A stretch of DNA of 64,000 nucleotides, taken from the NCBI GenBank assembly GCA_051362555.1, contig CM120645.1, positions 2,046,001-2,110,000 on the forward strand. The letters run 5' to 3'. Position 1 is the stretch's first letter, and each line of letters opens with the position of its first letter. Shown here piece by piece: positions 3,301 through 39,754 of the stretch. The stretch comes from Lingula anatina. Taxonomy: Eukaryota > Animalia > Brachiopoda. The notes under the pieces are model-generated. The model searched no databases and was not told where the DNA came from. It saw only the letters and a program-made list of their open reading frames with translations. The position numbers and the translations under genes were made by a program.

Positions 3301-4574
3301 CTTCCTTGGCCTCTGGTGCCAACACTCCTGCTCTGAATGTTACAGGGAAGGGGAATGGGCCTTCAGGTAGGTATTATAAAGATGAGGTTTGCAACTTTAA
3401 GGTATAAAGTATGGTTTGTAAGATTTGAATGGAAAATATATGATGGTAACATTTTTCTGGTGGTTTTGACAGTTTGTTATGTTTAGCAATGGCTGCTTCC
3501 AAACAGATGCCTGTAGACATCAGTTGGGTTTAATTCCAATTTCAGTAGATTGTGGCTCCATTTTTTTAAGAATGTTCAGATTTTTGCCTGGATTCTGATG
3601 ACAACGACTGAATAAGTCTCTTTTACGCCTTGTCCCAAAGTCATTATCATCCCAGTAGATTCAGTGCCCAGTAGTATATCCCTAATGTCTGTATATTTTA
3701 GGTGGAGTAGTGGCAGGTGGAACCACGGTTTTTGCAGGCACCAAATCTGTTGCTGCTAGTGCTCCTGTACTCGTTGGCACTGGTCAGCAGGCCACAGCAG
3801 TCAGTGGTTTGACCACTGGTGACCAGGCCAGCTCAACAGCGAGTGTTCCTGCTGCGATGGTAAGTACTGGTCAGCCAGCAGGTGGAGCCACTGCCGTCCA
3901 GGCTGGCGGTGGTAAGGTACAAACTGGAGGGCAACCAATGGCGGCAGCAATGACGACATCCACAGAGGACGGGATTCCCAAGAGCGAGGATCCTCTCACA
4001 AAGAGTTGGCCTACTGATCAGTTACAAGAGGCTACCAGACAAACGTACAGTAGAATGGTATCAGCCCCTGGAGAGGACTTGACTGCCGCTGCTCAGCCGA
4101 CTGCCTCTGTCCCCCTGCATCTGAATGATCTCAAGGAACAGTTAGACAAGCTGAATCAGAAACAAAAGCCAGTGCCAGCAGAACAGCAGGGAGAGGTGAG
4201 AATTTCATTGATTTTATGCAAAGTTTTGTCATGTCTTAACAGTTAAATGATTTGAATCTGCAAAACTCAAAACTAGGTTCTTTTTGACAGAGTTATGTTT
4301 ATGGCGTTTCTTGTTGTTACAGATCTTATGGGTAAATGTTAATGGTAAGCTGAAATCAGTAGATACACCCCAGGTAGCACCTTTTAGAATGACAGTATCT
4401 AAGGCAAATTATGTTACTTTCTCTAAAATTGACATCATAAACTGTGTAAGGAATATGTGTTGTGTTTTGCCAAGTGATAATTATGCTGTATGTTGTTATG
4501 ATAGAGCCAAGCCAAAGTGGACAGTGATGCCTCCCTGGCCGCAGTATCTGAGGACAAGATCACAGCAAGGTGAG

Positions 4575-4627
<53 letters not shown>

Positions 4628-7600
4628 TGGTCCTTATTTTGAAATTACTACCCAAAAGTTGATGACCATGTCTTGTTACTTGTGTGACTTGATATTAAAA
4701 TAAAAAAAGATATTTTGAAACATCACACTTCTAAGATAGGTCCTAGATGTGTCCTTTTCACTGTGCATAGTTATGTCAAATATAAAATAATTACATATTC
4801 TGGAATATCTTTGATACTGAAGCTAAGAAAATTTGTATGGAAAAAAATGCAGCAGTATCCAACTTTTGATTTATATTAAGTTATTAAAGAAATTTCAAGT
4901 GCAACATCAGCAGTGAAATATTATTTGTGACGTACATACTTTCTCCTTCCAGCAGTGACAGTGAGAGTCCAGCCCTCACGGGGGACAAAGGCCCCAGTCG
5001 CCAGCTGTCCAAAACCAAGCGGAAGAGGACACAGGACCGACTGCCAGTGTTGACCGTCCTCACGTATCAGTCCACTGACCAGGGACGGGTGGTGGAGTGT
5101 CAGCTGGACGGGGCAAAGTCCAGGATGGTCACTTTCACTTTCGATATCGACGTGGACAAGCCTGAAGATATTGTTGAGAATATGGTAGGTGTCAGTGTGT
5201 GTGTGCGCCTGCAGAAGTGTCATAGCTGGTCTACTTTATTATGAAACTGCTTCTGTGCTGTTAGACATGTGTAGGCAGTAGTTTTGATTTATTTTTAAGA
5301 CCAGTTTACTTAAAGAAGCTGGAGTCTTCACACTTAATCACAAATAAAATGATTTTTGTTTCCATCTCTGACCCATTTATGAATCATAAACCATGGTGTT
5401 ACCTATTTCCAGTGTTCAGGCAGCTTTCTCTTGCCTATTCACAAAGACTACTTTATGGAGCAGCTGGAGGAAGTGATCAAGATCATGACCACCAACCCGC
5501 AGGCCCTGGATGCCGGCTCCTTCACCGTGCCTCAGCTTAAAGAGACCACGCCTGCCACCAGTCCCAGCCTCTCCAGGAAGGGGTCTGCTGCCGCTGACAG
5601 TGATGTGGAGGCTAGAAAGGTAGGGCTTATGGTTAGCATTTTCAAATGTACAAACATTTTGTTTCTCTGAACCCCAATTTTCAAGCATTTTCTTCTTCTC
5701 CTACAATAGTGATGGGCCATATGCAATGGTTTTTGATGTATAGGTGAAATACTGAACAACATATCTTGATTATGGAGAAAAATATTAGCAGATAATAATT
5801 CAAAGTGATTGATTCTCCAGAGATCAGATACATCAGAGGTCCACAGGGCAGCCCCTTGCTCAGCAACTGAACCAGTTACCGTGCCAACAGATTATGAAGC
5901 CTCTGGGGTGATGACCCGATCAGCTACTGCCAATGGGTTGTCCCAGGCCGACACCGTGCAGGCCCCCCCTGCTGGTGGGAAGGAAGACCCAGAGACAGGG
6001 ACGGGGTTCCAGAGAACCTCCTCTGCTCCTGGGGAGCCTGCCGCCTTTGTGCCCGAGGGTTTGCACAAGCTGAACCAGCAGCTGACCCAGCTTTCACAGA
6101 GGAAGACTCCTGCAAAGGTGCAAGAGCAACAACCAGAAGGTCAAGGTCAGGCAGCAGGCCAGGGTCAAGGTCAGATAGAAGGTCAAGGTCAAGCAGCACA
6201 GACTCAGCAACCAGGCATGGCAATGGTACAGAATGCGCAGTATTTTCAACAGCAGCCGGCTTTGGTTCAACAACAACAGACACAGCAACAACAACAACAA
6301 CTACAACAGCAGCAACAACAGCAACAGACAGCTCCAAAGCAAGTGCAACATCCACCGCAAGGTCAGCCACAACAACCTGTACAAACACAACAGGCCCAGC
6401 AAGCCAAGCAGCCAGCACCAGCTCAACAACCAAAGGTGGCAGCACCAACACAAACAGCCCCAGGAGGAGCTCATCCCCAGTTTCTCCCCCCCTACGTGTA
6501 CCCTCTGGCGCCCCAGCAGCAGCAGCAGTGGCTGCAGTACCAGCAGATGATGAACCAACAGGGGTATCCTATGCAGCAGTACTATGGCCCACCTTTCTAC
6601 CCACCTTGGTATCCACCTCTACAGGTAACACTACACCTGGTTATATTGTATACATATATAATCTAGCTCTATTTAAATCATGATAATTTTATGAAGTATT
6701 TTGTAATTGTTGAAATTATCTTTTGATGTTTTAAATATTGTTTAAAAGTAAGTTTTGCTTGGTAGCAGAGTTCATAAAGTTTAGTATACATTTTAAAAAA
6801 TTCTACAAGATTTTTTTTTCATTAATAAGATAATCACAGCAAATTGGATTGTTGGAATTGATTCTTCATTAAACATATTTATTTCTCTATGTTTTAACTG
6901 CTTATTTTACTCTGCAGTTTTGCATGAAGTGCTCTGTGTTAGCTTTTTTCTCTTGAAAAATTGTATGCTTCTATCTTGTTTCTGAATTATATATATTTTT
7001 ATTTAAAAAAATATAAAGAGCTGGTAAAAACTTTTTTAAATGTAACCATATGTTGTTCAGTTATAATATGTTATTTATTTTATTTTTATTTTTCATTTGC
7101 ATGAATTCATGATACTTAAAAACTTCTCTTTCCATCTTAATATCATATTTAATACTGTGTCTTTAAAAAAATGTCTCTGTACTTTGTCAAGTCTTTTTAT
7201 TTGTAATTTCAAGTTTTGTTTTGTTTTGGTCTTTCCTGTTTGTGATGTGTACATTTTCAGGGTCAGAAATCATATTCTTCAGTGCTTATTAATGCGTTGC
7301 AATTATACTGATCCCAAAAAGGGCCTTGATTGTTCTTCAATATGTGAGACCAGTTTGAATTCAAATTTAATGTTAAAACTGAAGAAGATGATTTGTGCTA
7401 TTGTGCCTCTTTTTAAAGCGCCTTGTGATATTCTCTAATTGTGTCTAATTGTACTCTTCTATTTCAGTATTTCCTGTTCTCTTTTGATTGCCTAACGTGA
7501 CTCTTTTACTCTTTCAGTGTTGTTGACTAACTTTTAACTGTGCTTTCTCTTTTTTCTTCTTTTTTATGTTTTTCCTACCTGTAAAGGGCCAACCTCAACA

Positions 7601-10600
7601 ATACTTGTACCAGAATGCATATGTTGCCAATTATCTTCAGCAGATGATGCCATTCATGCAGATGCAGGGACAGATGCCTCAGCAACAGCAGATGGCAGCC
7701 CTGCCATACCAGCAACAAATGGGTCAAGGTCAGGTGCAAGGTCAAGGTTCACACCCTCAGTCTCCTGTAGGAACCCCAAGGAAGAACACCGGTGGTGCGG
7801 ATGAAGGTGTCATCACCACTCAACCCCAGGGACTTGATTCTGCAGTGGTGGATCTGCTCCCCTTGACTCCCTCCAGACAGCGCAGGATGATAGGCCTACA
7901 GCAGCTGGAGCAACAGTTGATAGAGAAACTCTACCCTGGAACCAAAGTGGCCCATGGGTTCCAGACCTCCCCTCCACCAGCAGGAGCTGTGAATGCGCCA
8001 CCAGGGCACTTGCTCCTCACACAGCCGTTGTTCCCTCCCCCGCTGCTGCCTGGGTCGCTGGAAGCCTCTGCGGGTGCTGTTGTGCCCTCTGCCACCTCCT
8101 CTGGTGCTGGTGTTGGAGGAGAAATGGGAGCACTTCCTCTTCCTTTGTCTTCAATAACCAGAGAGAAGAGTCCGGATGTTTCTGGTCAGGATGACAAACC
8201 AGCAGAAGGTTCCTTGCCAGGGGAAGTGCCCACAACAGTTCCCAGCAGTAAACAAGGAGAGACAGAGCAACCTGCGTCCACAGAGGCTCCTACAACAGAG
8301 GCACCAGTTCCTGCAGCAAGAGAGAAAGTTGCTGCTCCTCCAAAGAGGAAGCTGTCTAGGTTTTCAGTGAAGAAGGTGGACAACGATCCACTGAAGGCAA
8401 TACAGAGAACAGAAAGTGAGCCAGCAATGCCAGCCCGTCCCATGGATAGTCCAGCAGATGCCAAGCCAGCGACCGAGACAGTGCCCTCTACTGGTGGGAA
8501 AGGTCATCAACAAAGTACACAGCAAGCCCGGAGAAAGGGGCGTTTCAGTGTGACGACAACCAAGGACGCTGTGGCCCAGTCTGCGGCCCCTTCACATACT
8601 CCACCGCCGTCTCCCAGTCCAGTGACAGAGACACTGCCCACTACCACTACTAAATCTATAGACAGTTCTGCTTCTACTACCACTGTTATTACTACTAAAC
8701 CTGCTGAAGGGGCATTGGTAGATAATAGTAACACAGCAACTTCTGATGTAGAACTGAGTGTGAAGACAGATGTTGGTGATAAACCCCCACCACCAACAAC
8801 AACAGCAACAACAGCCCCAGCAGCTGGTGGTGGATTGAGAGATGTAAGTAGCACAGAGCACCTGCAGACTGTTAGTAACACTGTCACCAGTATAGGGCAG
8901 GAGAGTGGTTTGGGAAGTAGCGGGGCCTCCTCTCCCGTGGGAGACTTTCTTGAACACGAACATGAACATGACAGGCATTATGACACCTTGCCGCCAGTGG
9001 TGGCAAACTTGATCGCTGCCGACCTACGGCGCCATTCTCTGCCCGAGGTGCTCTCTAACAGCATGTCTTCTTTACCTGGTAGTGGTAGCACTGTTTTGAG
9101 TTCCACTAGTTCTAGTAGTCATCACATCTCCCCTCACAGACCCCCTCTCCATCCTAAAGTCAGCCACCTCCGAGCTCAGAGTGCTGGCAATGTGGCTTTC
9201 CCCCTGAAACCTTCACAACAACAACAGCAACAAATACAACAATTTCTACAACAACAACAGCAATTACAGCAGCAGCAGGGTCCTGTAACCTCCTCTGTGA
9301 GTGGCTTTGGTGTTGTGCCCGGTGGTGTGAAGCATGCTTATGTTCTGAGTGACGGTCAGTACCAGAGTGACCACCCTGACCCGACCACAGCTGGACTAAA
9401 GAAGACTCCCGTAACAGCTGACCCTGGCTTGAAGGTACCAACTGTTCTCTTGAGCACTACTAGTGACACTTGTTCCACTGCTACCATTGTTGTATCACCT
9501 CATTGTAACATTGCTGCTGCTGCTGCTACTACTAGTGTCATTAACCCTGATCACCAAATTCAGATCCATGAAGCCACCTCGCCTGAGGAACTAGCCAAAG
9601 GGTTGCACGTGGATGATGCTCTTATTAATACATTGTCACCCCAGCTTAACTACATATTTCATCATGACCATGACCATGCTAACCAACCTAACCAGCTACT
9701 AACTGTCAGTGAATCGTCAGGGCGCAGACGCTCTTTGTCTGTTAACTGCTGCATGGAGACATGCAGTCCACCCTCTCCACCTACACTAACACGCAGGGAG
9801 TACGCCGGGTCTTCCCCTTCACTTTACGATGAAACAGACTCTTATCCTTCATTTATAAACTACAAAACCAGGTCCACGCCCCAGTCCCCGACACCAACCC
9901 GTTACGGACATAGCTCTTTCCAGTTTCCACCAAACTTGCCCTTGGAATATGACCAGACTGCCTCTAAATTATACCCTCAGCGATCCCCAAGTCCGAATCC
10001 TCGGCTGAGTCCCAAACCATCCTCCGCCTTCACTCATAACTGGCCTAAACTCGGAAACCCTCCCAGTCGCCCCCAAGATTTCAGTGAACAGCAGTCGGTG
10101 TATAGACCTCGGAGAGGGTCTGTCCCAGAGCCGAGTAGTCCTTTAGTCCACAGGGACCACAGTCGTCCCTCTGACTGCAGGGACACCTTTCACTCCAGTC
10201 CTGTGGACTCCAGAGACAGCCGTAGTCATTATGACTATGGGTTCACTTCCTCCTCCTCCTCCTCTTCCTGGCAGGACTACTCCACTACCAAGCCTTTCCT
10301 TGAGGTAGTGCCTGGCTTACAAGGGTTTGGGAATGCGGCCTCTAACTTTGTTGAATTTGGCCATGATGTGGTAAGAGCGACCTAGGAATCCTGCAAAGGT
10401 TGAGGGATGAAGGCTTTGGGTGGGTGGATGTAGGTCTGTCTTCACTGGGATTGTTTGGGACTGGATATTGGTCCAATGTGTTTCATTGAGAATGTGTTTG
10501 ATTAACCAGGGATTTGGTATTTGAGGCACTGTAAGGTGGTTGTACCCCATCCCCCATGCCCCTCCCCTAGGAAAGCCCTTTGGGTCTAAGATATTTCAAT

Positions 10601-13600
10601 TCCTGGTTAATCAACCTGGTTATCAATAACACAAGCTTATTCTACTCTCAATCCAACATAATCTTGCTATAAACAAGCTTTTTTGTGATGTGGGAGCCTT
10701 TGAAGGATAGGACCAGTGGAGATATTAATGTAAAATCAGGATTATCAGTTTTCACAAGTTGTTTTTCACAATCCGAAAGTAGTCTTATATTGAACTAAAA
10801 ATCTTGGCATTTTCTGTTTGTAAGTGTTTCTAAGTAGTACTTTCACAATTCACCTGCAAAAATACTTAAGAATAGTATATATAATATTGCCCAGATATTT
10901 TCATTGTCTTGTGGTCTGGATATGGTCAAGTCCCACGTAGGTACCTTGGCTGCAATATGTTCATTTTGGAAGCCATTGTTTCTTTATTACGCACCATGTT
11001 CATAACTAAAAAGCCAAGTTCCTTAGTTCAAAGTTAACTTTGGCCTTAGTGTTCATTCAGAATTAGCTTGCCCTAAAAGGTCTGTACTAACTTATGAATA
11101 CAACATTGACCATGGACCATTTCTTTGCTGAAATATGGAAACCCATGAAACTCTTCATCCATTTTGCACAGACAACATTTCACCATTTTCAACTTTTGGT
11201 CTACTTTTGAATGCAGTTGATGCAGAACGTGGTAGCATTTTTATCAAATGGTTTATAAGAAGGGAGGGAAGGTAATAAGTAGAATAAACTGATTCTTGAC
11301 AGGATTAGGGTTGATGTTATTTTACCCCCACATCATAGGTAGACATATGTCCGATGATTGCCATTGTGAAATCCTTGCATTCCTCCTGGCAGTAGCTCAG
11401 ATAGATAGAACCCACCACCCCTCTCTGTCGTTTCCCTCAGCCTTGCAGTTGTTCTGTATGATTATTTCATTATTTTATTACTCTTTATTATTTTTGGCTG
11501 TGCTTCTGTGATTTATTTATTAATTATTATCAATTTTGAGCAAAGTTTTGATAGTGTAGATGATTTTGTCTGCATCCAAGCTTTTTTTGATTTTGTCTGC
11601 TGTTATAATGCCTGTGTGATATGAATGTTAAAAGTGCAACAGCCTCTTTAAAAGTGGAAAATAACCAATTGTTGTCACCTGCCTGCTTGTTTGATCAATG
11701 TTGTCTCACAACAAATGCCATATAGAATGTACACACTGAAGGTAACTTAAAAACTAAAATTGAATAACAGTAACCTAGTGTAGATGATCCATGTATTCAC
11801 ATGAAGACGTCGACTATGAAAACGACACTTTCAGAGGACACTTATTGACACAAGGAATTAAATTTGTCAAATTTCATCACATAAACTCTGCATAATTTGT
11901 ATTTTGGTAATTCATCTGTACATGACATATTATTCATGAAAGTTCATACATTGGAAAGTAACTCTGAAAAGCATTTGGTCCATTTACTAGCTAGTGTCTG
12001 TGGCTAATGAATACACCAAAAGCTTGACATGCTTTCATAAGATTATACAGTATGATTAAGTTTAGATTTTCTACCCATCATGACCTGCTATGATTAGCCA
12101 AAAGATATTTATGATGCAAAGCTTTTATTAAAGCCAGTGCTTATTTTAACTGCTAATTATTGTGTATTAAGTAATGAGTGGTAGAGTGGAGCAGGATTAT
12201 TTCTTAGCTGATCAGCATTTGTGTATGATTGTATGGAATATGGGAATAGCTTTAATGAATTGATTTGATTGATTTGATTTTCATAAACAGTCAACTTAAC
12301 AGTACATATGTAATCATTATCTATAACTTAATTGCAGCCTGTGAATATAATTGCATTTTAAAGAAATTTAAAAAATGTAAATGGGCTTGCACTGGTACAG
12401 AATATAAAAATTTGACTTTCGACATAAGCATTTACCTATAACTTAACTGCAGCAAGTGAAAGAAATTGCTTTTCTTGCATTTTAAGGAAATTTAAAAATA
12501 TTCTAATGCTTCACTTAATCCAATTTTTATCAAGCCAATAACGTTAGAAGAACAATTTTAATCTGCCTTAAAAATACTTCCGAAGTGGCCAGTGTTGTGT
12601 GTGTGAGTAGTGCGGGTCCAGACACCTGCCATGGTTTTTCTTAGTAGTCATTAGCAGTTATTTTCAGTAGTCGATGATCAGTTGTGCTAACCATGTGTGT
12701 GTGATTGTCTCCTTTGTCAGGTCCCAGAAAACCCTGGCCAGATCATGAATATGTTGTACCAAGTCCAGTACACCATGGATCCTGAATATCAGCAAATACT
12801 CTCCAGGTGAGACATTACTAAATGTTGTGTTGTTTGGAAAAAAAAAGATGGGATGACCTCTTTGCTTTGGTTTATATGAGAAGGACTCTGCCTTGTTAAA
12901 CAATATATGCAGTTTCTTTTTCTGCTCCTGCTCCTGCTCAACTTTGTTGAAATATCCTGAAAAGATGTGTTTGATTCACAAAGAATGTCATATCATGTAA
13001 TTGTAAAAATATGCAGTTAACTTAAAAATGAATGAAATATTGACAGTGAAAAATGCATTTAGAAATAAACATTAACTGTAAGCTGTAAAAGTGAATGTCC
13101 TCCAGTGAACAGGATTTCTTTATTTGTTACAGACACAAAGCAGAGAGGGACGACCTGATACAGAAACAGACGGGAGAACTGCACGAGTACCACAAACACA
13201 AGATGCAGCTTTTCAAGCTCCAACATCACCAACAGCAGCAGCAGCTTCTCCATCAACAACAACAACAGCAACAGCAGCATCAGGTGGGAGGGGGTGGCAG
13301 GACATCAGACACCCAACAACAACAACAACAAGCACCTGCTGGTACAGTGCCCCAGGCTGCAGAGGGGGCAGAAGTGGAGAGAAGGTCAATAGATATGCCA
13401 GACACCAAAACAGGGGCTTTGTCCCAGCAACAACAACAACAACAACAACAACAGGCTCAACACTTCAATGTTCCTGCAGCCAGTCTTTCCTACCCCCAGC
13501 TCTACCATCCAGCAATGTTCGTCCCACAGCAAGCTTCACTTCACCACCAGATGGAGACACTGATGGAGGGCAAAACCCAGAACGTCGCAGATGACTTTCT

Positions 13601-14522
13601 GCATTATACAGACTTTTCCCGCGCTGGCCAACAGCAGCAGCTGATGATGGAGCAGCCCAAGCCATCTCAGAGCCAGCTGAAGCAGATGCAGCAGCAGTTT
13701 GACAACATGCACGTTGGGGTGCCTGTGAAGAGGACTCAGAGTCTGAAGGGAGAGACTTGTACACAGGTTCAGCAGGTGCTTGATATTGGTCACCCCCACT
13801 CCCACCACAGTGGGTCAGCGGGCACCACACCCCAGTCCACTCCCCCTCTGACCAGAAAGTGGTCCACGGAGAGCTTGCCGCAGATGGCCACAGCTTCTAC
13901 CCACCAGCCGAGTGTGGACAGCAACAGTAACAACAGCATGCCCCCTTCTGGTACCAGTATGAACTATTCCAATGTTTCCCTCCCTGAGCAGCAGTATTAC
14001 ACATACCACGGACATGGATCCATTAGTGGGCATTATATGGGTGCAGGTGGGGGTCAGGGGATGCCACAGCACCCACCTCCACACCCACATGGCATGCACC
14101 CAGTTCACCATGGACAGCAGATGTATGGGGCTGGGGTCCCCATGTACAGCCAGCCACTGCAACACTATGTGCATGGACAAGGTCAAATTGCAGCCCAAGG
14201 TCAAATGCATGGGCAAGGTCAAATTGCAGCCCAAGGTCAAATGCATGGCCAAGGTCAAATTGCACCCCAAGGTCAAATGCATGGACAAGGTCAAATTCCC
14301 AGTCAGGGTCAGATGCATGGGCAAGGTCAAATTGCAGCCCAAGGTCAAATGCAGGGGCAAGGTCAGATGCATGGCCAAGGTCATATTCCTGGTCAGGGTC
14401 AAATGCATGGCCAAGGTCAAATGCTGGGTCAAGGTCAAATGTCAGATGTCTGGCCAACCAGTCAAGTGACTACTTATCCTGCTCATACGATACAGGCACC
14501 ATCAGCATCGCACCCAAGTTGA
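378..14522 (+). CDS. WNK: WNK-family serine/threonine kinase, C-terminal ~2306 aa (5'-partial; kinase domain upstream of window)
   Basis: Exons with GT-AG and consistent phases: 378-574, 1835-1882, 2146-2368, 2738-2962, 3201-3366, 3702-4195, 4505-4569, 4953-5184, 5413-5619, 5821-6624, 7587-10370, 12721-12806, 13133-14522 (TGA); sum 6921 nt, divisible by 3. Two CCT/PF2-like domains (VECLLEVAKEKQVTFKFD; VVECQLDGAKSRMVTFTFD) resemble WNK CCT2; RFSV motifs at 8358-8369 and 8541-8552; C-terminal coiled coil LSRHKAERDDLIQKQTGELHEY; long Q/S/P-rich disordered regions. Confidence 0.88.
2146..2962 (+). other. WNK CCT-like domain copy A (exons 2146-2368 + 2738-2962)
   Basis: RVTILNIEEQEEGNLVECLLEVAKEKQVTFKFDISEDGPGDIAENL|MIRQLLQAQHKELFQDQMGEVI matches the WNK CCT2 pattern (ILNV..VVECQL..KMVTFKFD..D.P.EIA). 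Confidence 0.8.
2481..2640 (+). mobile_element. MITE-like element in WNK intron, same family as 48081-48252
   Basis: Ends AGGGGCGGAT ... GTCTGCCCCTG are near-inverted; the body aligns by eye to the reverse complement of 48081-48252. Confidence 0.7.
4577..4623. repeat. (AAT)n microsatellite
   Basis: Direct reading; immediately after the 4569 donor site. Confidence 0.95.
4953..5619 (+). other. WNK CCT-like domain copy B (exons 4953-5184 + 5413-5619)
   Basis: VLTVLTYQSTDQGRVVECQLDGAKSRMVTFTFDIDVDKPEDIVENM|CSGSFLLPIHKDYFMEQLEEVI; same pattern and intron positions as copy A. Confidence 0.8.
14172..14441 (+). repeat. Coding minisatellite, 36-bp unit (18-bp subunit), encoding HGQGQIAAQGQM-type repeats in the WNK last exon
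   Basis: Repeated CATGG(A/G/C)CAAGGTCAAATTGCAGCCCAAGGTCAAATG; about 7 degenerate units. Confidence 0.9.
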
Positions 14523-18535: not shown

Positions 18536-27268
<8,733 letters not shown>

Positions 27269-27699: not shown

Positions 27700-28490
27700 C
27701 AGCTCTAAATGCCGCATGCGCAGCACAACTATTATTGTATCACTACAAAGTTATAGCTTCCTGCGCAAGCAGTTCCCAGCCAGGATAAATTAATTCAACT
27801 CTAATTCATTAAATTCAAATTCGCTAAAAAAGAGTTGTTTTCAGTTGCTCAGTTTTTCACACTCACGCACCCCACGCCTTGGTTTCTCACGTGGAGCACG
27901 TAGCCTACACAGAACATGTCCCAGTGTCGAGTACAGCAGCAACCACACAAAGGTGCATATTGTCAAAGCGCGTAATGTCAATGCCGCTGCATACCTTTCA
28001 TTCAAGCGATTCAATTGATTTAGTTCACTTTGGGTCAACCTAGCAAAACCGAGTTATTATAAGGCAAATATCGCTCGAAATCACGAAAGGTTGATAACTG
28101 AAATGTTAGTAATGAACAGATAAGTGTATATGACATAAGAGCCTGATGCTAAGATAGAGATAGCGCATATTACTGGATCAAAGGAATCGCCTTTGGAAAT
28201 ATACACGGAGGGTGCGAAACTGAAAATATTTTATGACGCAGCTCTATTTATGTCAACAACATCACCTGACATTTTTCGATGGGCGCCATTTTATTCACCT
28301 TCCCTGGGCAAATTTTGTCGGAATTCAAGACTTAACGTAAAATATGACTTGACTTTAGCATGTGAACTGTACTTGGCAACCTGCAAACGTTGGTTTTATC
28401 TGCGGAGTAGAGACGATCTTACCTTGATGAAGTTTTTTCGAGAATTAGGTGTGAAACCGGCCGCTGAACGTTCGAAGTTTTAAAGGTACA
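27700..28490 (+). promoter_or_regulatory. Probable promoter / non-coding first exon region of the NLR gene
   Basis: CpG-richer stretch with NRF1-like GCATGCGC near 27714; candidate donor AAAG|GTACAG near 28485; the NLR ATG exon starts at an acceptor (30535/30536), so an upstream exon is expected. Confidence 0.4.
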
Positions 28491-29095: not shown

Positions 29096-30569
29096 TAAAA
29101 TGAAGAATATTTTACTTTATTCTCATAATATAACACAACTGATTAATTTCTTCTTTGATAAAGAACAATTTATTAACACGATCGAGATGCATTAAGTTTC
29201 CTATTTTTTTCCTGACAACAAATGCTACTTTTACAATAATTTAGATAACGTTCTTTAGACTTGATTCCTTGGTCTGTTATACCAGATACAACTGTCGGTT
29301 AAACATATTACCACTTGTTGTGGTTGAGAACTTTTCTGAGTATTCTATAATTGCTCCATTTTATACAAAAAAAAAAAAAAAAAAAGAAAAAAATTAATCC
29401 AATTTGTAGAAACTCGTTCAGATGGTGACCTTTGTTATCAGTCGTTTCTAAAACGCAATATTGAATTTGATGAAGATGTCACAAATCACTGTACCCGAAT
29501 TTATCGAATTTTGTCGTACTGTTGGGCGATATATTCTTACTATTAAGCCATAATTCCAAGTACGTGTTAGATTGGCACCTGAAATAATCTGAAATAAAGC
29601 TTGATTAGGTGCAAAAAGGGGACCATTTTGCACTTAAACGCAAAACAATCAACCACTGTACGTTCCCATGCAGCGTTTTGTTTTCTCTCCTGAATCGCGT
29701 GCACAAAACATCAGTCTGTGTTGAGCACAATAGCAACGACACAAAAGTTCTTTCAAAGCGCATAATGTCAATACCGCTGTATGCTTTTCAGTCAGTTGGG
29801 TCAATAGAGCAAGTTGGCATTGGGTCACCTAATAATACAATGCCATTGTTCTGTGAATTATAAATTATAAATCTTAAATGATACCAATGGTCTGGTCATA
29901 TGAACGATATAAAAAGTTGATAGCAAGACTCTGGTACCTCATGCATATCAATCACAGGGAGCAATTTTGAGAATATTAGATGGAAATTTAACACTGAAAA
30001 TATTTTATGACACAATGTCAACAACATCACCTGGCAGCCTTTGACATAAAAGTACCTTGGCATGAATGATCGATGCATTAAAGTGTCTCAGGACAAAAAA
30101 AAAGATTTTCCCTAGATCTGGACCTCCCACTGATGTTAGAGCATTAAGGTCCAATAATGCATAAAAATGGAAGATCCTTTTGGAGTAATTATTTCCCAAC
30201 TTCTGCACTATTTCTATGCCATTTTTTGATCAAGTGTATACGAAGTGTAGAAATGCACATGCTAATAAGAACCACATCACTCTTTGTCATCATCATCATA
30301 ATGCGCCCTGCCCCTTAACGTTTACATCCAGCGTTTATTCTGCCCCAGCATTCAGCAAGCCTATGATTTTGTCACATTTATTTAGGATTTAGGATTTTGT
30401 TTCTCCTGGCTGTTTCCATTTGCTGTATTCAATCTCTTCACATTGAAATATTATTAATTAACTTTGTTTAAAAAGCTGATGATATAATCGGACCAACACT
30501 GACTGGTAAAGTTTACATCTCCAATTACATTCCAGGGGGGTAGGTAAGGACGTAGAAGTGACAGGAACC

Positions 30570-31260
30570 ATGGCAACAGCAATAGAGTCATACACCGGCT
30601 CTGGCCAGGAGAATTATTTCCGTTTGTGCATTTTAATTGTTGATCGTGCCCTGGCGGTCTTGCAACATGTTCTTCAGGAAGAGCTTACGAAAAAGTACCC
30701 CAGTTTGTTTGACCTCAACACCAGTTTGTTATGTGGGGTGCTTGGTGATGGAACTGTCAGGAAAACACTGTTTAGATTACCACGAGGAGTATTTAATAAG
30801 CAGCAAAAAGACCAACTGTATCCTGCTGGAAATCCCTCCACATCAGTAACTGTTGGTGATTTAGACATCACACTGACTGTTCTCTTGCTGAGGAACATCA
30901 CAACATTGAATACTAAGACCAAAGCATGGGACAACCCCTCTGACAGCGATAAATCAACAGAAGCCGAGATTGGGCGAGTTAAAAGATATCGGAATGTTGA
31001 GTATGCTCATATAAAAGAGGCAGCAATCAGCTTGGATGTATTCCGAGAAAAATTCTCCGGTCTCAAGTCCAGTCTCCTGGCTCTCTCTGGCAGGTACAGT
31101 GGTGAGGAATACGACGCCATTTTGCACAGACCTCTTGACACTGGTTTATTTAAGGATTACCAAGATGTTATGAACAAACTGTACAATTATGACAAAGAGG
31201 TGAAAGAGTGGATGATGGAGAATCATGATATGCTCAAGGAAATCGGATTAATTACAAAAG
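30570..31260 (+). other. HEPN (DZIP3/hRUL138-like) domain exon of the NLR
   Basis: Rx5H motif RNVEYAH at 30990-31010 preceded by the DITL..LLRN signature. Confidence 0.8.
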
Positions 31261-34200
31261 GTACATACTTTGTTCTTTTAGATGCTTTCCTCACATAAAA
31301 CTCATTGATACACATACACTGTACATGTATGTGTTCGTAATTTACATTTTGTTTGGGAGCATCTTTACTTCAAACATTTTCTTGGGTGTGAATGAGGTCA
31401 ATATATTGATTGTGGCAGCAGCATCAGGCCTTCAAATGGAAAACAATATCTTTTCTTAGAATTCTCTTTTGAACATTCATACCTAAATATGTGATATATT
31501 TGTATTTTCTTTACCAAACCTTTTGAGAGAATTAGTAGATTGAAAGTAGTGGTAGTGTTAACAGCATACTAGTAATTCAGATGAAATGCGATCGTCACTC
31601 TTAAAGTCTTCAATTGGATTTTAATACATGTTTTTTGAGAACTGCATATACAGTGAAGTTGTGTTTGTTTACAGACATTCAGGAAAAAGTTCAGGTGCTT
31701 TATGACAGGAATCAAGATGCACCAGCACGTCGGATAAGTACAGGTAATATAGTACAGTAAATGTCAGGTTCAAAAATGGATGTATAAATGTATGGAATTA
31801 TATCATGTCTACTGCTCTTTGGCATGAATATGGCATGTAATACCATATAATTTGCAAGTGACATTAATAGAGTGACTTTATTTTAAAGATATATCAGTAG
31901 CATTTATATTTTAATACAATTGTATGTGAGGAACCGTTTTGATTAGCGGTTGAAGCAGGGTCCTGGTCAGGCAGAGAACGATATTGTAGGTTTGATAGCA
32001 CTCAGCGCCTCATACGGCAGCGGGGCTGTATCCTCCCCAGTGAGGTGAGATCGTTTACACAGAATGTAATGACCAGTTGCCTGACTATTTGTTATGAATA
32101 GTTGTGAAAAAACATCGATAGCTCTTCAGGTGAGGTATATATGTTTTAAACCGAAAACAATTTCAAAACAAACATGTCATCATCTCGAATGAACAAATTC
32201 TCCCCGATGCATTTTCTTATGTGACAGCATTATCTCACAACATTATAACGTTTAATTCTGCACTTTCTAAATGGATCAGGGAAATAAAATAGATCCTAGC
32301 TTACGCATCAGTCTACCTTAAATCGCCCTTTCATCAGTCAAAACACACAAGCCACTGAGTAAAGTGCATGCATGTTACCTATAAAACTGAGCTGACTTAT
32401 TATACCTAAAGGATGAGTTAACAAACTCCCAATAACAACCCATACCCATTAACTTTTCTTTCTTGAGTTGTTTAACTCCTAGTGGAGCCATGTGAAGCAA
32501 ATTTCGGTTTTATTCTTTAACCGGCATTTTATATATCTCCATTTGTATAAAAAGAGATTCCCAATATATAGATCCATTTGAAGAAAACAGAAAAATGAAG
32601 TTGAAATGACATTTTGTTCTCAACTTTCAATAATATTTTCATGATGCCAGGTAACGAAGGTTTTGCAAATTAATTTCTAAGAGAATGCAATTTTGCCGTG
32701 TTTTGTGTGACATGGAAATATTGGACATAATTGAATATAACTGTTATTGCAAAAATACTACAAAAAACATCAAACAACTAAAAATAATGACCTCCGACAA
32801 TAGATATCACAGAGTTTTTTTAAATTTTTAAATGCCGAAGGACACTACGGAAATAGCCACAATATATTATTATGTTATTGCCAAAAGGACGCACTTGTAA
32901 AGCTCGATATTTACAAAATAAACTTCCTCTTTGATAAAAAAAAAACACTAGCTGAGCATGTTTTCTGAAGGCAATGCTCCGTTTACGCCATTTTGATGGT
33001 CTGTCCGAAAACTTGCATTTAATTTACACATGGGCTTTTCAAGTATCTGACTTTGAATTTCTACTGGTCTGAGGCCATTTTCTTTAATTAAAATTTCGAA
33101 ATCTATACATTAGAGGTGCATACTCAAAAACCCATACATTGTATTTTAAGCTACATGTACTACATTATAATTTAAATGATAACATATATTCTGTTCACTT
33201 TAAAAGTTAATTGGAGTTTCACTGTATGTGTTAAGTTATGTCACTGCTTCAATCAGTTTTGTAATTTATATTCTGTCCATATGACACCTTGGCTGCTGTG
33301 ATTTTTATGACCATGTCAATCATTTATATATTTCATGACTTATTGATCATCACCCATTTAACTTAATCTGTTCCAGGAAGCAGTTACTTGTACTTGCTTG
33401 AAAACCACTTTTCAATTCAGATAGACCATCTATCCAAGTAATATTACTGTAGATATGCACATGTATAAACCATTTATATTTCCCTCCAAATCAGGTTCTC
33501 GAAGCAGATCATCATCTGACAGTGACGATTCTCCAGCACCCTCAACTTCCACAAGTAGCCAAAAACCTGGACGTCACCACAGGAAGAGTGCTCAAGGAAG
33601 TAAGATTGAGAAAATTGAAAATAAATATTGTATGCTCATTGTATCTGTGCCAGATTGTTTATCAAAACATGGTTTCTGTAATAGTGATACCGATATACAG
33701 ATATGCAGACGTAAGTTGCTAACAATATTTCCCTCCAAACCAGGATCTCGAAGTAGATCTTCCACTGTGTCTGACAAGGAATCTCCAGCACCCGCAAATT
33801 CCGCAACTGGCCAAAGATCTGGAGACCCAGAACAGAGCCATAGACGTGGTAAGACCCGGGAAATTAGAAATATTCAAATTTTGTGTGCTTATTTTTTTAC
33901 GTTACGATAAATTATCCACAAACCTTAACGTTTGTATAAAATTTTAATAGCAATCAAGAGAAGATGGGATTTAGTATGGTGTTCTTTTCACATGGCCCTA
34001 AGTCTACGTATGTTATAATATTATTATTCAGCGTTTTATTTATTTGTTAGTAAAGGGTGGGGGAAGTTCAGTGGAAGTTGGAAAAATATATTTAAATATT
34101 GTACAACATGTGTATTTAAATATCATTCATTTGTGTTTTACATATAGAATTTGAGTGTTTGCACAATATATTCACCAAGAAAACAAACTTAAATGCATTT

Positions 34201-37200
34201 CTGTGTGTGTGTTTTGTGTGTGTGTGTCTGCACATTTTTGCGTGAATGTGTATGTGTGCCTGTGTGAACGGGCGTGTGTCCGTATGTTTGTGCATGTAAA
34301 CGTGTGTTTTTGTGAATACACACGCGTTTGTGTGTGATCACATCAGGATATATCATGACTATTACATATTTGCCATCATAATGGGCCACATAATTTTGCA
34401 TTGGGTGCAAAACTGAAAGTAAGATGTATAAAAGTATTGTCCCCTTTCAATATGGCTGTGATAATGCTTCAAATTACCACAGTAACGGTACACGAGTCCT
34501 TTTACACTGTATATTCTACGGCACTAGAAACCAACGTGAAGTTTATGTTCTATGCACCTTTTCTCACTATCTTTAAATATGTTTGTATTTTACAGTGCAA
34601 ATATTGTAAAGAAAAAAATATGTATATGAATAAATCTAATACATTTCATGTATTGTGAGTACTAAATCGGTGAAACCTTTTACTGCAGCATTCCTCGACG
34701 CCCTTTAGTTTATGGTAGCTAGGTCGTTTTGGTTTAGTGAAGTGAGCCTAGAATGTTTTATAATTGCATGGAGGAGTATTACTGTGAAATACATTGTTAA
34801 CAGTAATCATGCAGTTATTGTTTTTAAAATTTATATTATAAGTTGTAAAGGCTGGAAAATATTTTCTTATAACATTGACGATACTGTTTCTTTCTATAGA
34901 ATATGTTTCTTTTTAGGCGCCAAACTTAAAACAACGAAGCCAGATACCTGCTATCAGGTAATGTACATTTAGAACCTGTCGCTCTACATTGCGATCAACA
35001 TCTTGTTATAATCACTTAACAATTTCATGAATATTTGAATAAAAAGATTTCAAACTTTCCTATTCTTCCATACTCACGTAATATCTAAATGCAGAGACTG
35101 TTAGTAGTGTGAGGGACTGTACTAGTATGTCTGCAGACCCTGCGTGACTATTGTAACACTACACGCACTAAATACTTTCAGCCAGATTATACGAATAGTG
35201 GACGTCATATATAAGGCAATAAAATCATTGGTTATACCACGTTTTAATATTTTATATTATCTAGATGAGCTTTGAAATTATTTTCCATTTTTCAGGCACC
35301 TGTAATGAGTCCAACACACAAAAATCTGTTGGTGAAAATGAGGCCAATGCTTGTAGAAAATCTCCGAGTTGAGGATATAATTCGGGACATGGTAGCCACG
35401 AACATTTTCAGTAAAGACAATGCAGAAAAGGTAATGGCTAAAGAAACAGAAAATGATCAAGCTTTTGAATTTCTTCGTATTCTACCAAAATGTGGTCCTG
35501 GTGCATTTGAAACATTTGTTGAAGTGTTGAGAAATCACAATAAGATAGAACTTGCAGATAAGTTAGCAGACAAAGCGACTGCATACAGTAGTAAAAACCA
35601 AATAGCAAACTTCTACATCAATTACATGAGCCAGATACAGCGTCTTCCTTGGGACCCCGACGACACAATGCACTTAGATGAAGCCTATGTTAACCTGCAG
35701 TGGGTACAAGAAGAAAGGAAACCAGCAGGTACCTGTTCTGATCCAATCCAGAGTTATACATCAATATTTAAAGATACCAAACAAGGTACGAGACCAAAAA
35801 GAATATTGGTCAGAGGAAAAGCAGGCATCGGCAAAACCACATTTACACAGAAGATGGCAACAGACTGGGCAAATGCCACACTGGGTTTAGGAGAATGTGA
35901 TGAAGTCCTTTTAAGATATGAACATGTTTTAATAATAAATCTACGCAGCATTCAGCCTGGTCAAACATTGAAGGAAGCAATGGAAACACAAATTACTTAT
36001 CCTTCAGAAAATAGGAAAGCAGTGACAGATGAAGTCATGCAAGCTGTAGACTATGATAGTGACCATGTTCTCTTGGCCTTTGATGGTTATGATGAATATG
36101 ATATCAACACTTCCACAGAAATCACAGACATAATTTACCGAAGACGATACCAGGATGTGTGCACCGTCGTCACAACACGTCCGTGGAAGGCAGAAGAACT
36201 GATGAACAGACGAATAACGGACGGTGCGTATGAAATCACTGGGCTAACAGAGGACAACATAGCTGAATATGTTGCTAAATTCTTTGATGATCAAGAGACA
36301 TATGATAAGTACCTGGCATTTTCGAAATACTGTTTCGAAAGTACGGATGTATTGGATTCAATAGGGAAGGGTCTAGTGGGTTACCTAGGCGAAAAAAAGC
36401 TGATGTCTTTGGTGAAGATCCCAATACTTCTACTGTTCATTTGTCTTATGTGGCAAGAAGATCAAGAGAGTGATGCCCAGACAGATTCACTCCCAGCTTC
36501 ATACACACTGCTATACAAGAAACTAATACAGTTGCTTTTAAGACGAAGATACGGCATCAGGACACAGGTTGAAATGGAACAGTCTGCATTCGTTAAAAAT
36601 CTTGAAGAACAAACATTTATCAGCCTTGGCAAGCTGGCTTACGATGGACTGGTGAAACCAGATGGGGGTCTCATATATGATGAAAAGGACCTGCAGACGA
36701 TTCCAGATGTTAACGAATTGTACAGTTTAGGTCTACTTAGCAAGTGTAAGGTTCACAGTAACCTTGATGTTAAACACGAGGTAACTTTTCCACACAAAAC
36801 CATCCAGGAGTTTTTTGCGGCAAAATACCTGGTGGGGACATTAGACGAAAATGACAGTAATATTTTAGATCTTTTTTTGGAAAACATAGACACCCTTGAA
36901 GAACTCTATGACATGGACGTTGTGTTACGCTTTTTGTGTGGGTTTTCAAGGAAAGCAACTACCAAAGTGCTACGTAGAGGTAAAGGTCTTTACGACGAAG
37001 TTAAGAAACAAAGTGATAATAAAAGTGCGTATATGGCATATACTACGAGGTGCAGCGAGTTCTGTAATAATCTCCTCCTAGAAAACTGGTATGCCTACTG
37101 TCCCCAGGCAACAGTGCTGCCTCCTGATCTTTTCTTCTGGCTCACAGAGCTTTACATACCTGAATCACTTAAGCACTCTAATCCCAGATTCCAGCAGGTC

Positions 37201-38610
37201 TTGCGGGACAGTATGTGCAGTCCCCAGGTATGTTCTGGTTTGAATGCCATCACCGTTGATTTGGGGCCACGCACTCATTGGCGTGAAACACATCAGAAAA
37301 CATCTTTACTCAGTGAGTGTGACATGTTATGTAAACTAGAAGTGGTAGTGTGTCAGAATGTATGTGACATTTGTGATGACTGCAGATGTACCTTAAAGCA
37401 TGTTTTATCTAAAGCTCCTAATCTTCAAAGACTTGACATAGCTGGAAATTGTAGTGGAGCACTATCATCAATACCAAACCCTGGAAAACTGCTACATCTG
37501 GATGTCAGTGACATAAATGTTCAAGACTGCCAGGTGATCCAACAGATGCGGCACTTGAAGTACATTGATGTAACTGGGAAAATAGATGTAGGATCAATAA
37601 TGCCAAGAGAGCCACTTCCTCAACTGGGGGCAATACCTAATATCAGTCATGATTTGACTCATATCGATATTAGATTTACCCCTCTTAGTGCCGTGGGTGT
37701 ACAACTTCTGGGGAGGAACCTTCACCATGTGCCAGGGCTGGAACATCTGACACTGGTCTGTGTATTCATGTGGGGATCCAAATGTGGGCCTGACAGGTGT
37801 ACATGTCCTAGGGGTGAAGATACAACAGACTATGACAGGTGTAAATGTCCTAGGGGTGAAGATACAACAGACTATGACAGGTGTACATGTCCTAGGGATG
37901 AAGATACAACAGACTATGACAGGTGTACATGTCCTAGGGGTGAAGATACAACAGACTATGACAGGTGTACATGTCCTAGGGGTGAAGATACAACAGACTA
38001 TGACAGGTGTACATGTCCTAGGGGTGAAGATACAACAGACTATGACAGGTGTACATGTCCTAGGGGTGAAGATACAACAGACTATGACAGGTGTACATGT
38101 CCTAGGGGTGAAGATAACACAGACTATGACAGGTGTACATGTCCTAGGGGTGAAGATACAACAGACTATGACAGGTGTACATGTCCTAGGGGTGAAGATA
38201 CAACAGACTATGACAGGTGTACATGTCCTAGGGGTGAAGTTACAACAGACTATGACAGATGCCAGGATGTCTGTGAAGCCGTGCTTGAACTGAGCCAAGG
38301 TGTGATACACACCACTAAGCTGAAGTACTTCTCATTCAGTTTCAATTACTTGTCTACGTACCACGGTATCACCAGTCCACTGATAGCATTGATACAATCT
38401 CTCAGTACAGTGTCAGAGCAGACTGGAATGGAGATTGACATGTCCAATAATGGCCTGGACAGAGTTGACCGCCTCAGTGAGCTGATAGTAGCCATTGTTC
38501 ACTCTTACCAGCATGTATCAACTTGGGAGTTTTGGCATAATAACCTTAAAATGGTTCTCCCAAAGCCAGACGACAGTCTTAATTGTCAAGTGTCACATAC
38601 ATGGCCATAA
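30570..38610 (+). CDS. NLR-type protein: HEPN (DZIP3-like)-linker-CARD-NACHT-LRR, ~1441 aa
   Basis: Exons 30570-31260, 31675-31743, 33495-33599, 33744-33848, 34917-34957, 35296-38610 (TAA); phases 1,1,1,1,0 consistent; sum 4326 nt. HEPN: NYFRL..QQKDQLYP..DLDITLTVLLLRNI..W..RVKRYRNVEYAH. CARD: HKNLLVKMRPMLVENL..FLRILPKCGPGAFETFVEVL. Walker A GKAGIGKT (35815-35838), Walker B LLAFDGYDE, sensor-1 VVTTRP, WHD FPHKTIQEFFAAKYL, LRRs such as NLQRLDIAGN and KLLHLDVSD. Confidence 0.88.
31930..32140 (+). mobile_element. SINE-like fragment (Nin/Deu-domain-like core) in NLR intron 2
   Basis: Core AGCGCCTCATACGGCAGCGGGGCTGTATCCTCCCCAGTGAGGTGAGAT resembles the conserved central domain of invertebrate Nin-type SINEs; recognised from memory only. 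Confidence 0.4.
37792..38253 (+). repeat. Coding minisatellite, 11 x 42 bp, encoding DRCTCPRGEDTTDY inside the NLR LRR region
   Basis: Unit GACAGGTGTACATGTCCTAGGGGTGAAGATACAACAGACTAT; single-base variants in units 2, 3, 8 and 11 only; in frame. Confidence 0.97.
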
Positions 38611-39754
38611 ATGTGCAGCATTCACGCGATACGCGAGGGCGCAACAGTAGGGCTTCACGGACTCAGCTAACCAATCACAGCACAAGAATGGCATCGCACA
38701 CAGACTCTGTGATAAGTGCTCAGCCCATTGTCAAGTAGTGTTAGTTCATGGTAACAGGCGTCTGATATGTGCAGAGAAGTTTATTATTATTATATATATT
38801 GTTCTTATTGTTACATTATTAAATCTAACTCTGTATCCAAGTAGTAACTATACTGTACCAAGTCAGGTACTGATGATGTACAGAGGTCATATATTCCAGA
38901 ATAAGCCATTACCACTGACTTTAATTTTTGTTTGATATGTTATTCATGAAAGAGTTAATGAAAGATTATTTTAATTTGTTAAATCGTGATCTTATTCTTT
39001 TTATATTCAAATAATTGAATAATGTGGGTACAATTGGTCTTCCACTTCTTATTTGCATTTTTTCCTTTACTACAAGATTATTTTGGAACAGTTGCAGCAT
39101 TAAAAATTAAAATAAATAGCAATCTGAAAGAAGAATTTTGCATAATTATTAAATGATGATAGGAATTTTGGATCAAGAGATTAGTTAAATACTGAGTAGT
39201 GATATTGTCAGTCAATTTATGTAGAATCTGATAATATGATTAAAAATCTTGATTGAATTCTTGGCCTTGCACTGGGCAGTTTTACATTTGTGCCAAGTGC
39301 TTTTTTGGACTCCATTGTACAATGGTAAAAGTTATTCAATTGCCATGAAAGTTTTTAATCAGACTCTATATGGTGCTGCTATCTGCTGGTGCTATCGGTA
39401 ACGAATTAATTTGCCTTTGTTTCTGAGTGAATCTACCGTCTAAACTCACTATTACTGAAAATATTTGCGTTTTGCTGAGGGTAGGCTAGGCAATACACGG
39501 CGAACTTCTCAGTATGTACAACAGAATTTTTTTAAAAACCCTATCGATATTTGGTCAGGAGTTGCTTGAAGCATAGCACAACGTTGTTGTCTATGGGCAT
39601 CAGGCCGTTAGTTTGTCATAATCTCACGAATTACCCACGAATCGCGAACCCATTCATTTTCCTATGGCAATCTAGCAACTCATTAAAAATGCACGCATGC
39701 GCAGTGGGCTAGGCGTGACGTCATGCAGTCCATTTCTGATGGATGAATATTTTT

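Follow-up and report, generated by a model that had tools for sequence, protein, structure and literature searches.

A HEPN-CARD-NACHT gene of the brachiopod Lingula anatina as a candidate receptor with two effector domains

Introduction

Can one animal NLR carry both a HEPN domain of the ribonuclease type and a CARD, and would a single ligand set both to work? The question is raised by a locus of the lamp shell Lingula anatina (Brachiopoda), which lies in a stretch of 64,000 nucleotides (assembly GCA_051362555.1, contig CM120645.1, positions 2,046,001 to 2,110,000 of the forward strand), referred to here as the window and numbered from its first letter. A preliminary description, made from the sequence alone, had placed there a gene in which a HEPN domain is spliced in front of CARD, NACHT and LRR parts, and had considered this combination undescribed. 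We find that HEPN and CARD-NACHT stand on one spliced, expressed gene, as confirmed by a chain of five junctions in close alleles or paralogues. The gene is a variant of a catalogued class of invertebrate HEPN-NLRs, and the mechanism proposed for it has been in print since 2013.

Gene structure and transcript evidence

Six coding exons on the plus strand, separated by GT-AG introns throughout, add up to 4,326 nt in a single 1,441-aa frame with zero internal stops; the joining of two open reading frames through four small exons, as drawn in the preliminary description, was rebuilt exactly. Before splicing, the open reading frames comprise 242 codons from the ATG at 30570 and a long frame terminating at 38610. 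Exon 1 (30536-31260), placed by Pfam, an AF2 model and RNA reads, encodes a DZIP3/hRUL138-like HEPN domain (residues 53-195) and then the predicted start of a coiled coil, whose predicted end lies in the 69-nt exon 2 (31675-31743), as indicated by RNA joints, a heptad pattern and a tblastn match of the RefSeq model XP_013379433.1 (P0001). Exons 3 (33495-33599) and 4 (33744-33848), of 105 nt each and both found in RNA joints, encode a Ser/Arg-rich linker. By pairwise alignment they are tandem duplicates, flanks included, and exon 3 has a counterpart in the RefSeq model P0126. The 41-nt exon 5 (34917-34957), likewise found in RNA joints, is the only small exon required for the frame: of the 16 ways to include or omit the four small exons, the 8 that include this one keep it open, the other three exons being phase-symmetric. 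Exon 6 (35296-38610) runs from CARD through NACHT, HD1, the winged-helix domain (WHD) and HD2 to LRR and the stop codon, on the evidence of Pfam, an AF2 model and Foldseek.

Upstream, the 3' end of a non-coding exon in the 5' untranslated region occupies 28460-28485 (donor AAG/GTACAG); the loose ends of 11 reads of run X7 at 30535 align to 28460-28477 with all but 2 letters agreeing, against a mean of 0.01 by chance. This exon brings in a TAA in frame, 13 codons 5' of the ATG. An N-terminal membrane anchor of the type seen in RefSeq models P0001 and P0128 was considered and rejected, as tblastn found none for the window gene and the untranslated region holds this in-frame stop.

An approximate scoring matrix places the five donors 5th, 7th, 9th, 14th and 19th among 301 GT sites, and the five acceptors 1st, 3rd, 7th, 15th and 30th among 211 AG sites. 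Since the sites are not outstanding by so rough a matrix, RNA evidence was needed for the choice of exons. Nine raw-read runs were available by species label, of which seven were aligned, with about 6% of each of X1, X2, X3 and X4 sampled. In X7, X8 and X9, respectively, exact GT-AG joints were carried by 6, 5 and 9 reads at 31260/31675, by 7, 15 and 22 at 31743/33495, by 0, 8 and 0 at 33599/33744 (with 10, 1 and 14 variant joints entering at 33744-33746), by 8, 14 and 20 at 33848/34917, and by 9, 7 and 28 at 34957/35296, while several intron bins had zero read depth. The first, fourth and fifth of these joints had been singled out in the preliminary description, and reads now cross them exactly. 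The reads are 85-99% similar to the window gene, and those at least 99% alike number 0 of 677, 1 of 738 and 2 of 822; their near absence indicates that the reads of these three runs derive from diverged alleles or paralogues with a shared exon plan. Among the differences listed between the reads and the window gene, none falls at R141 or H147 of the HEPN motif described below. Eight X8 reads run back from 33762 to 33527, which suggests a third copy of exon 3/4 in some allele or paralogue, and hence a variable linker length.

It is very improbable that the HEPN exons and the CARD-NACHT exon are two genes, in the manner of the RefSeq pairs P0126 with P0009 and P0128 with P0014. The HEPN-to-CARD span is covered by no single 150-nt read, so that both domains are never seen in one read, and in RefSeq the likely orthologue appears as two models, a 293-aa HEPN protein (P0126) and a CARD-NACHT protein (P0009); but the chain of five joints is unbroken in three runs, and two RefSeq paralogues are fused. 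RefSeq probably splits both pairs, which would be two further genes of this kind: P0126 and P0009 lie on contigs that are both 183,217 long, and the locus numbers of P0128 and P0014 directly follow one another, the link of P0128 to an NLR resting only on these adjacent numbers and contig size. As the reads indicate that the likely orthologue is split in RefSeq, such architectures are undercounted.

The HEPN domain and its linker

All three domains named in the preliminary description, HEPN_DZIP3, CARD and NACHT, score above their Pfam cut-offs in hidden Markov model searches. HEPN_DZIP3 (PF18738) was found at E 9.6e-39, with 132.9 bits against a gathering score of 27. The Rx5H motif RNVEYAH, which had been described as intact, is located at 30990-31010 by the family alignment (R141-N142 and H147) and has the Rx4-6H pattern of HEPN ribonucleases. 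In the family alignment of 83 sequences, R141, N142 and H147 are at least 90% conserved and belong to the 16 near-invariant columns, and R[NDH]x3-5H is present in 76 of the 83.

The AF2 model of the HEPN domain has a pLDDT of 92.3, with a helix at residues 191-224. Compared with 48,161 chains, it has two HEPN proteins as its best structural matches, Csm6 (Z 7.6, root-mean-square deviation 3.5 over 116 aligned residues) and AbiF (Z 5.6); these agree with a HEPN fold but lie below the trust line of the tool. Searched by sequence against solved structures, the HEPN exon and its profile returned coiled coils only and no HEPN relative. A homodimer prediction, for which the alignment was not used, scored 0.29 against a mark of 0.32 and was counted neither for nor against pairing.

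In two heptad frames of the predicted coiled coil the a/d positions have a hydrophobicity of 0.65-0.71, whereas the five remaining frames give 0.11-0.39. The heptad-patterned helix is followed by a linker of 84 aa with 21 Ser and 10 Arg, which contains, in exon 3, the sequence DSDD-S (33518-33532). Caspases prefer sites of the DxxD-S type. A sequential scheme can be imagined, in which a caspase recruited by the CARD cuts the linker at this site and frees the HEPN-coiled-coil fragment as an RNase, so that oligomerisation would activate the RNase only indirectly. The site is retained in P0126, and the fragment, once free, could dimerise through the coiled coil; on the other hand, the site is missing from the linkers of P0001 and of the RefSeq model XP_013408965.1 (P0004), and DxxD is frequent by chance in Ser/Asp-rich linkers. 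We regard this scheme as improbable.

The CARD-NACHT-LRR part

The CARD (35323-35571; PF00619, E 4.1e-13, 49.6 bits against a cut-off of 23.9) has CED-3, RAIDD and the NOD1 CARD as its nearest natural solved chains and supplies the death-fold effector that animal NLRs have N-terminal to NACHT. The NACHT NTPase follows at 35800-36291 (PF05729, E 1.1e-18), with Walker A GKAGIGKTT (35815-35841), Walker B LLAFDGYDE (36070-36096) and the sensor-1 Arg, invariant in 46 sequences, and the winged-helix motif FPHKTIQEFFAA lies at 36787-36822 by motif check and alignment. The protein thus has the NACHT NTPase of an animal NLR, the WHD His included, and the motif check agrees with the NACHT motifs given in the preliminary description.

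A divergent LRR solenoid of about 10 strand-helix repeats is predicted at 37240-38538 from the AF2 secondary structure. By Pfam, only LRR_4 was detected, at a sub-threshold E of 0.0029, and HD2 is likewise below its cut-off; the whole exon-6 model has NLRC4 as its best Foldseek match (E 1.5e-23), with NOD2 and NLRP3 matched too. A C-terminal LRR solenoid is therefore assigned chiefly from the predicted fold.

Inside one LRR loop, TRF finds an in-frame minisatellite of 42 bp x 11.1 (37791-38258; 97% matches), which encodes 11 Cys-x-Cys units of 14 aa, the model having a pLDDT below 50 at residues 838-983. One such unit is present in three of seven relatives (P0004, P0008 and P0011) and none was detected in the other four, and X7 reads crossing 37791-38258 skip the array; the expansion to 11 units is very recent. 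The window copy might be taken for an allele that is silent or in decay within a family that otherwise works, its LRR broken by the array, and the runs that hold most of the reads of at least 99% identity, X1 and X2, barely cover the exons. We consider this unlikely, because no stop interrupts the 1,441 codons, the array preserves the reading frame and lies in a loop, and splice sites and motifs are all intact.

Relatives in Lingula and beyond

All close matches are proteins of Lingula anatina. The order HEPN-CARD-NACHT is already present in two RefSeq models, P0001 and P0004, with identities of 61-62% in HEPN and 70-74% in CARD-NACHT. Both are named 'uncharacterized'; they differ from the window gene in that the motif of P0004 has R replaced by Q, P0001 ends after the WHD, and neither has the 11-unit array. 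The window HEPN groups with P0126 (100/99) and the window NACHT with P0009 and P0008 (100/99). To the two nearest relatives, identity is 90-94% in CARD and NACHT, 53-56% in HD2 and 65% in the N-terminal part of the LRR (P0008 only). Conserved CARD and NACHT beside diverged HD2 and LRR is what a diversifying sensor would be expected to show.

Among 11 close HEPNs, RNx4H is kept in nine; both that have lost it, P0004 and P0128, are NLR-linked, and these motif-dead HEPNs are possible decoys or inhibitors. In L. anatina, HEPNs of the same clade with RNx4H intact also stand at the front of a RIG-I-like helicase (P0003, which is LOC106165417), a GTPase of the interferon-inducible IIGP type (P0002) and a helicase of DEAD/DEAH type (P0006). 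The RIG-I-like helicase is complete (DEAD, Helicase_C, RIG-I_C, CTD) and would be a candidate self-contained RNase triggered by double-stranded RNA. The clade is also found on a CARD protein whose middle part is long and hydrophobic, and its presence on helicases and a GTPase fits a portable effector. Further HEPN_DZIP3 fusions are HEPN with kinase and RNase L/Ire1 KEN (P0254) and HEPN with caspase in Lingula (P0274, listed as P0133/P0274). HEPN and RLR fusions with TRADD-N are mentioned for brachiopods (PMC8195603).

Outside these models the triple was not seen among the proteins scanned. Of 147 newly listed matches, 54 long representatives include at least 24 with HEPN and NACHT and none with CARD, some TPR, WD40 or ubiquitin proteins among them being visible by their five best families only. 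An architecture search by word index, which is insensitive, covered 33 proteins (alignment A4) and gave HEPN+CARD+NACHT only in the two Lingula models. Residues 1-700 of P0004 reached a best score of 0.84 in the ESM Atlas, in HEPN-STAND/NACHT clusters of which none is shown with CARD; this serves as a lead only. The HEPN-CARD-NACHT variant is apparently restricted to Lingula.

Prior descriptions and known systems

Fusions of the DZIP3-type HEPN to CARD, NACHT, DEATH and LRR have been catalogued, and RNase L-like or antiviral action has been proposed for those linked to NACHT or DEATH (PMC3710099). In 9 of 15 cnidarians NACHT is paired with HEPN more often than with any other domain, and anthozoan genomes have 17-83 HEPN-NACHT proteins each (PMC8260672). 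HEPN-NLRs of nine invertebrates were reported as untested (PMC8662601), and the pearl oyster has more than 50, with Rx4-6H (PMC9646362). That HEPN_DZIP3 occurs on invertebrate NTPases, which the preliminary description had granted, is thus borne out (PMC3710099; PMC8662601; PMC9646362). For L. anatina, 10 HEPN-NACHT and 11 CARD-NACHT proteins are counted separately in Dataset S5 of PMC13012124, which has no column for the triple. Supplementary Table 5 of PMC8260672 lists NACHT proteins with HEPN and Death and with HEPN and caspase; the word 'CARD' is absent from that table, and the TIAMMAt supplement has no HEPN text.

In our literature search, which had most subscription papers outside its scope, including a 2018 Lingula immunome study (PubMed 29278680) that may describe such proteins, we located no paper naming HEPN, CARD and NACHT in one protein. 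The claim that the HEPN and CARD combination is undescribed therefore holds only in a narrow sense, for the order HEPN+CARD+NACHT as named in a paper; it fails for the combination as such, since a DZIP3 HEPN-CARD fusion is listed (PMC3710099) and two RefSeq models carry the triple.

With the known invertebrate HEPN-NLRs (HEPN-NACHT-LRR/TPR/WD40 of corals, anemones, pearl oyster, amphioxus and Lingula; PMC8260672; PMC9646362; PMC8662601; PMC13012124) the gene shares an N-terminal DZIP3-type HEPN with Rx4-6H on a NACHT protein, and the same RNase or RNA-sensing role has been proposed for them; it differs in having a CARD between HEPN and NACHT. Proteins of Actinia tenebrosa with HEPN+NACHT+Death+COR (XP_031549033-5.1) and HEPN+NACHT+LRR+caspase+ZU5 (XP_031557716-7.1) likewise add a second death-signalling module, but this is Death or caspase in place of CARD, in a table without domain order (Supplementary Table 5 of PMC8260672). 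Vertebrate NLRC4 and NOD1 share the motifs and the CARD-NACHT-HD1-WHD-HD2-LRR fold, which in the window gene is predicted, whereas they have no enzymatic effector and are about 17% identical in structural alignment. The HEPN RNases Csm6, AbiF, Cas13 and RNase L/Ire1 KEN have Rx4-6H and, as predicted from a modest model match, the HEPN fold in common with it, a structural likeness only (best Z 7.6), but their activator is a cyclic oligonucleotide, 2-5A or guide RNA instead of the LRR ligand proposed here. Bacterial NACHT proteins with HEPN effectors have been described as well (10.1101/2022.07.19.500537).

Other features of the window

Within the 64-kb window, no second HEPN or NLR piece was found. 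The 3' part of a WNK-kinase-like gene lies at 2033-14522, with two CCTL2_WNK matches, Gln-rich exons and an 18/36-bp repeat at 14170-14441, and a NIDO-AMOP-C8-Sushi gene resembling SUSD2/MUC4 lies at 19010-26369. Short stretches at 31948-32060, 32763-32793 and 38600-39500, where reads of several RNA runs align and have loose ends at either side, are probably dispersed repeats; at 38518-39500, X1 and X2 reads run mostly opposite in direction to the exon reads.

A possible mechanism with two outputs

HEPN RNases are activated by pairing, and NLRs oligomerise. It appears about evenly balanced whether the gene encodes a switch in which ligand-driven oligomerisation of NACHT both clusters the CARDs and pairs the tethered HEPNs into an active RNase. 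At rest, the LRR/HD2 region would autoinhibit the receptor; its variable HD2/LRR part would sense a ligand, upon which NACHT would form an ATP-driven oligomer. Clustered CARDs could then recruit a caspase or adaptor through CARD-CARD contact, while the HEPNs, held on a coiled coil and a flexible linker, might pair into a composite active site and act as an RNase, the coiled coil and 84-aa linker letting them do so without blocking the CARD. RNA cleavage might result in host translation shut-off or strike viral RNA. The scheme builds on the gene structure, the splicing in close relatives, the domains and the intact motifs, and takes its remaining steps from NLR and HEPN biology. We favour it because of the read-supported junctions, the three Pfam domains, the conserved R141, N142 and H147, the HEPN-like and NLRC4-like models and the sensor-like divergence, and furthermore because nine of 11 close HEPNs keep RNx4H and a homology survey reports CARD caspases and GSDME in Lingula, with an NLRC-caspase-GSDME path predicted (PMC11508797). 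A HEPN RNase paired by oligomerisation beside CARD signalling, as the preliminary description had suggested, is plausible, and the idea is not new (PMC3710099).

Several points weigh against this reading. The RNA reads do not come from the window allele, and X1, X2, X3 and X4 have no joints and scant exon cover, with almost no expression in four of the seven runs. The structural match of the HEPN domain is modest (Z below 8), and Foldseek gave none at E of 0.001 or less (best AbiF, E 0.31). The window copy carries a low-confidence repeat insertion of about 146 aa in its LRR, which may impair the receptor. A literature search, mostly without subscription papers, found no RNase test of any DZIP3-type HEPN. 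Finally, the motif is lost in two of four NLR-linked RefSeq HEPNs (P0004, R to Q; P0128, RD...N), so that part of the family can do without catalysis.

This loss also bears on the strongest alternative, that the HEPN does not catalyse but binds RNA or serves as a decoy (an integrated sensor), with the CARD as sole output in the manner of NLRC4 or NOD1. Against the likely orthologue, HEPN is less conserved (82%) than CARD and NACHT (92-93%); HEPN-NLRs have been suggested as possible RNA sensors (PMC8662601), and motif-less HEPNs are regarded as RNA binders (PMC3710099). However, R-N-x4-H is kept in both the window gene and its likely orthologue, as is the motif in most of the family, and sensor-like divergence is already found in the LRR/HD2 region. 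We judge a decoy HEPN rather unlikely, though less so than the caspase-cleavage or decaying-allele schemes, and retain the two-output switch as the preferred reading.

Implications

More broadly, and tentatively, a family of lamp-shell NLRs may fuse RNase L-like and inflammasome-like CARD steps, so that one ligand-driven oligomer would degrade RNA and recruit a caspase; an IRG-type GTPase and a RIG-I-like helicase also carry the HEPN-coiled-coil cassette, and NLR paralogues with a dead motif might serve as brakes or decoys. NACHT proteins headed by a HEPN belong to the commonest NLR types of invertebrates (PMC8260672; PMC9646362). The window gene is a good test case, with an intact catalytic motif, splicing supported by reads, natural motif-dead paralogues that can serve as controls and a CARD as second readable output. 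If the mechanism is true, it would be the first animal NLR shown to have a nuclease output, and would parallel in animals the STAND-nuclease defence of bacteria; were both outputs to work, animal NLRs could be nucleases in their own right, like bacterial STAND proteins.

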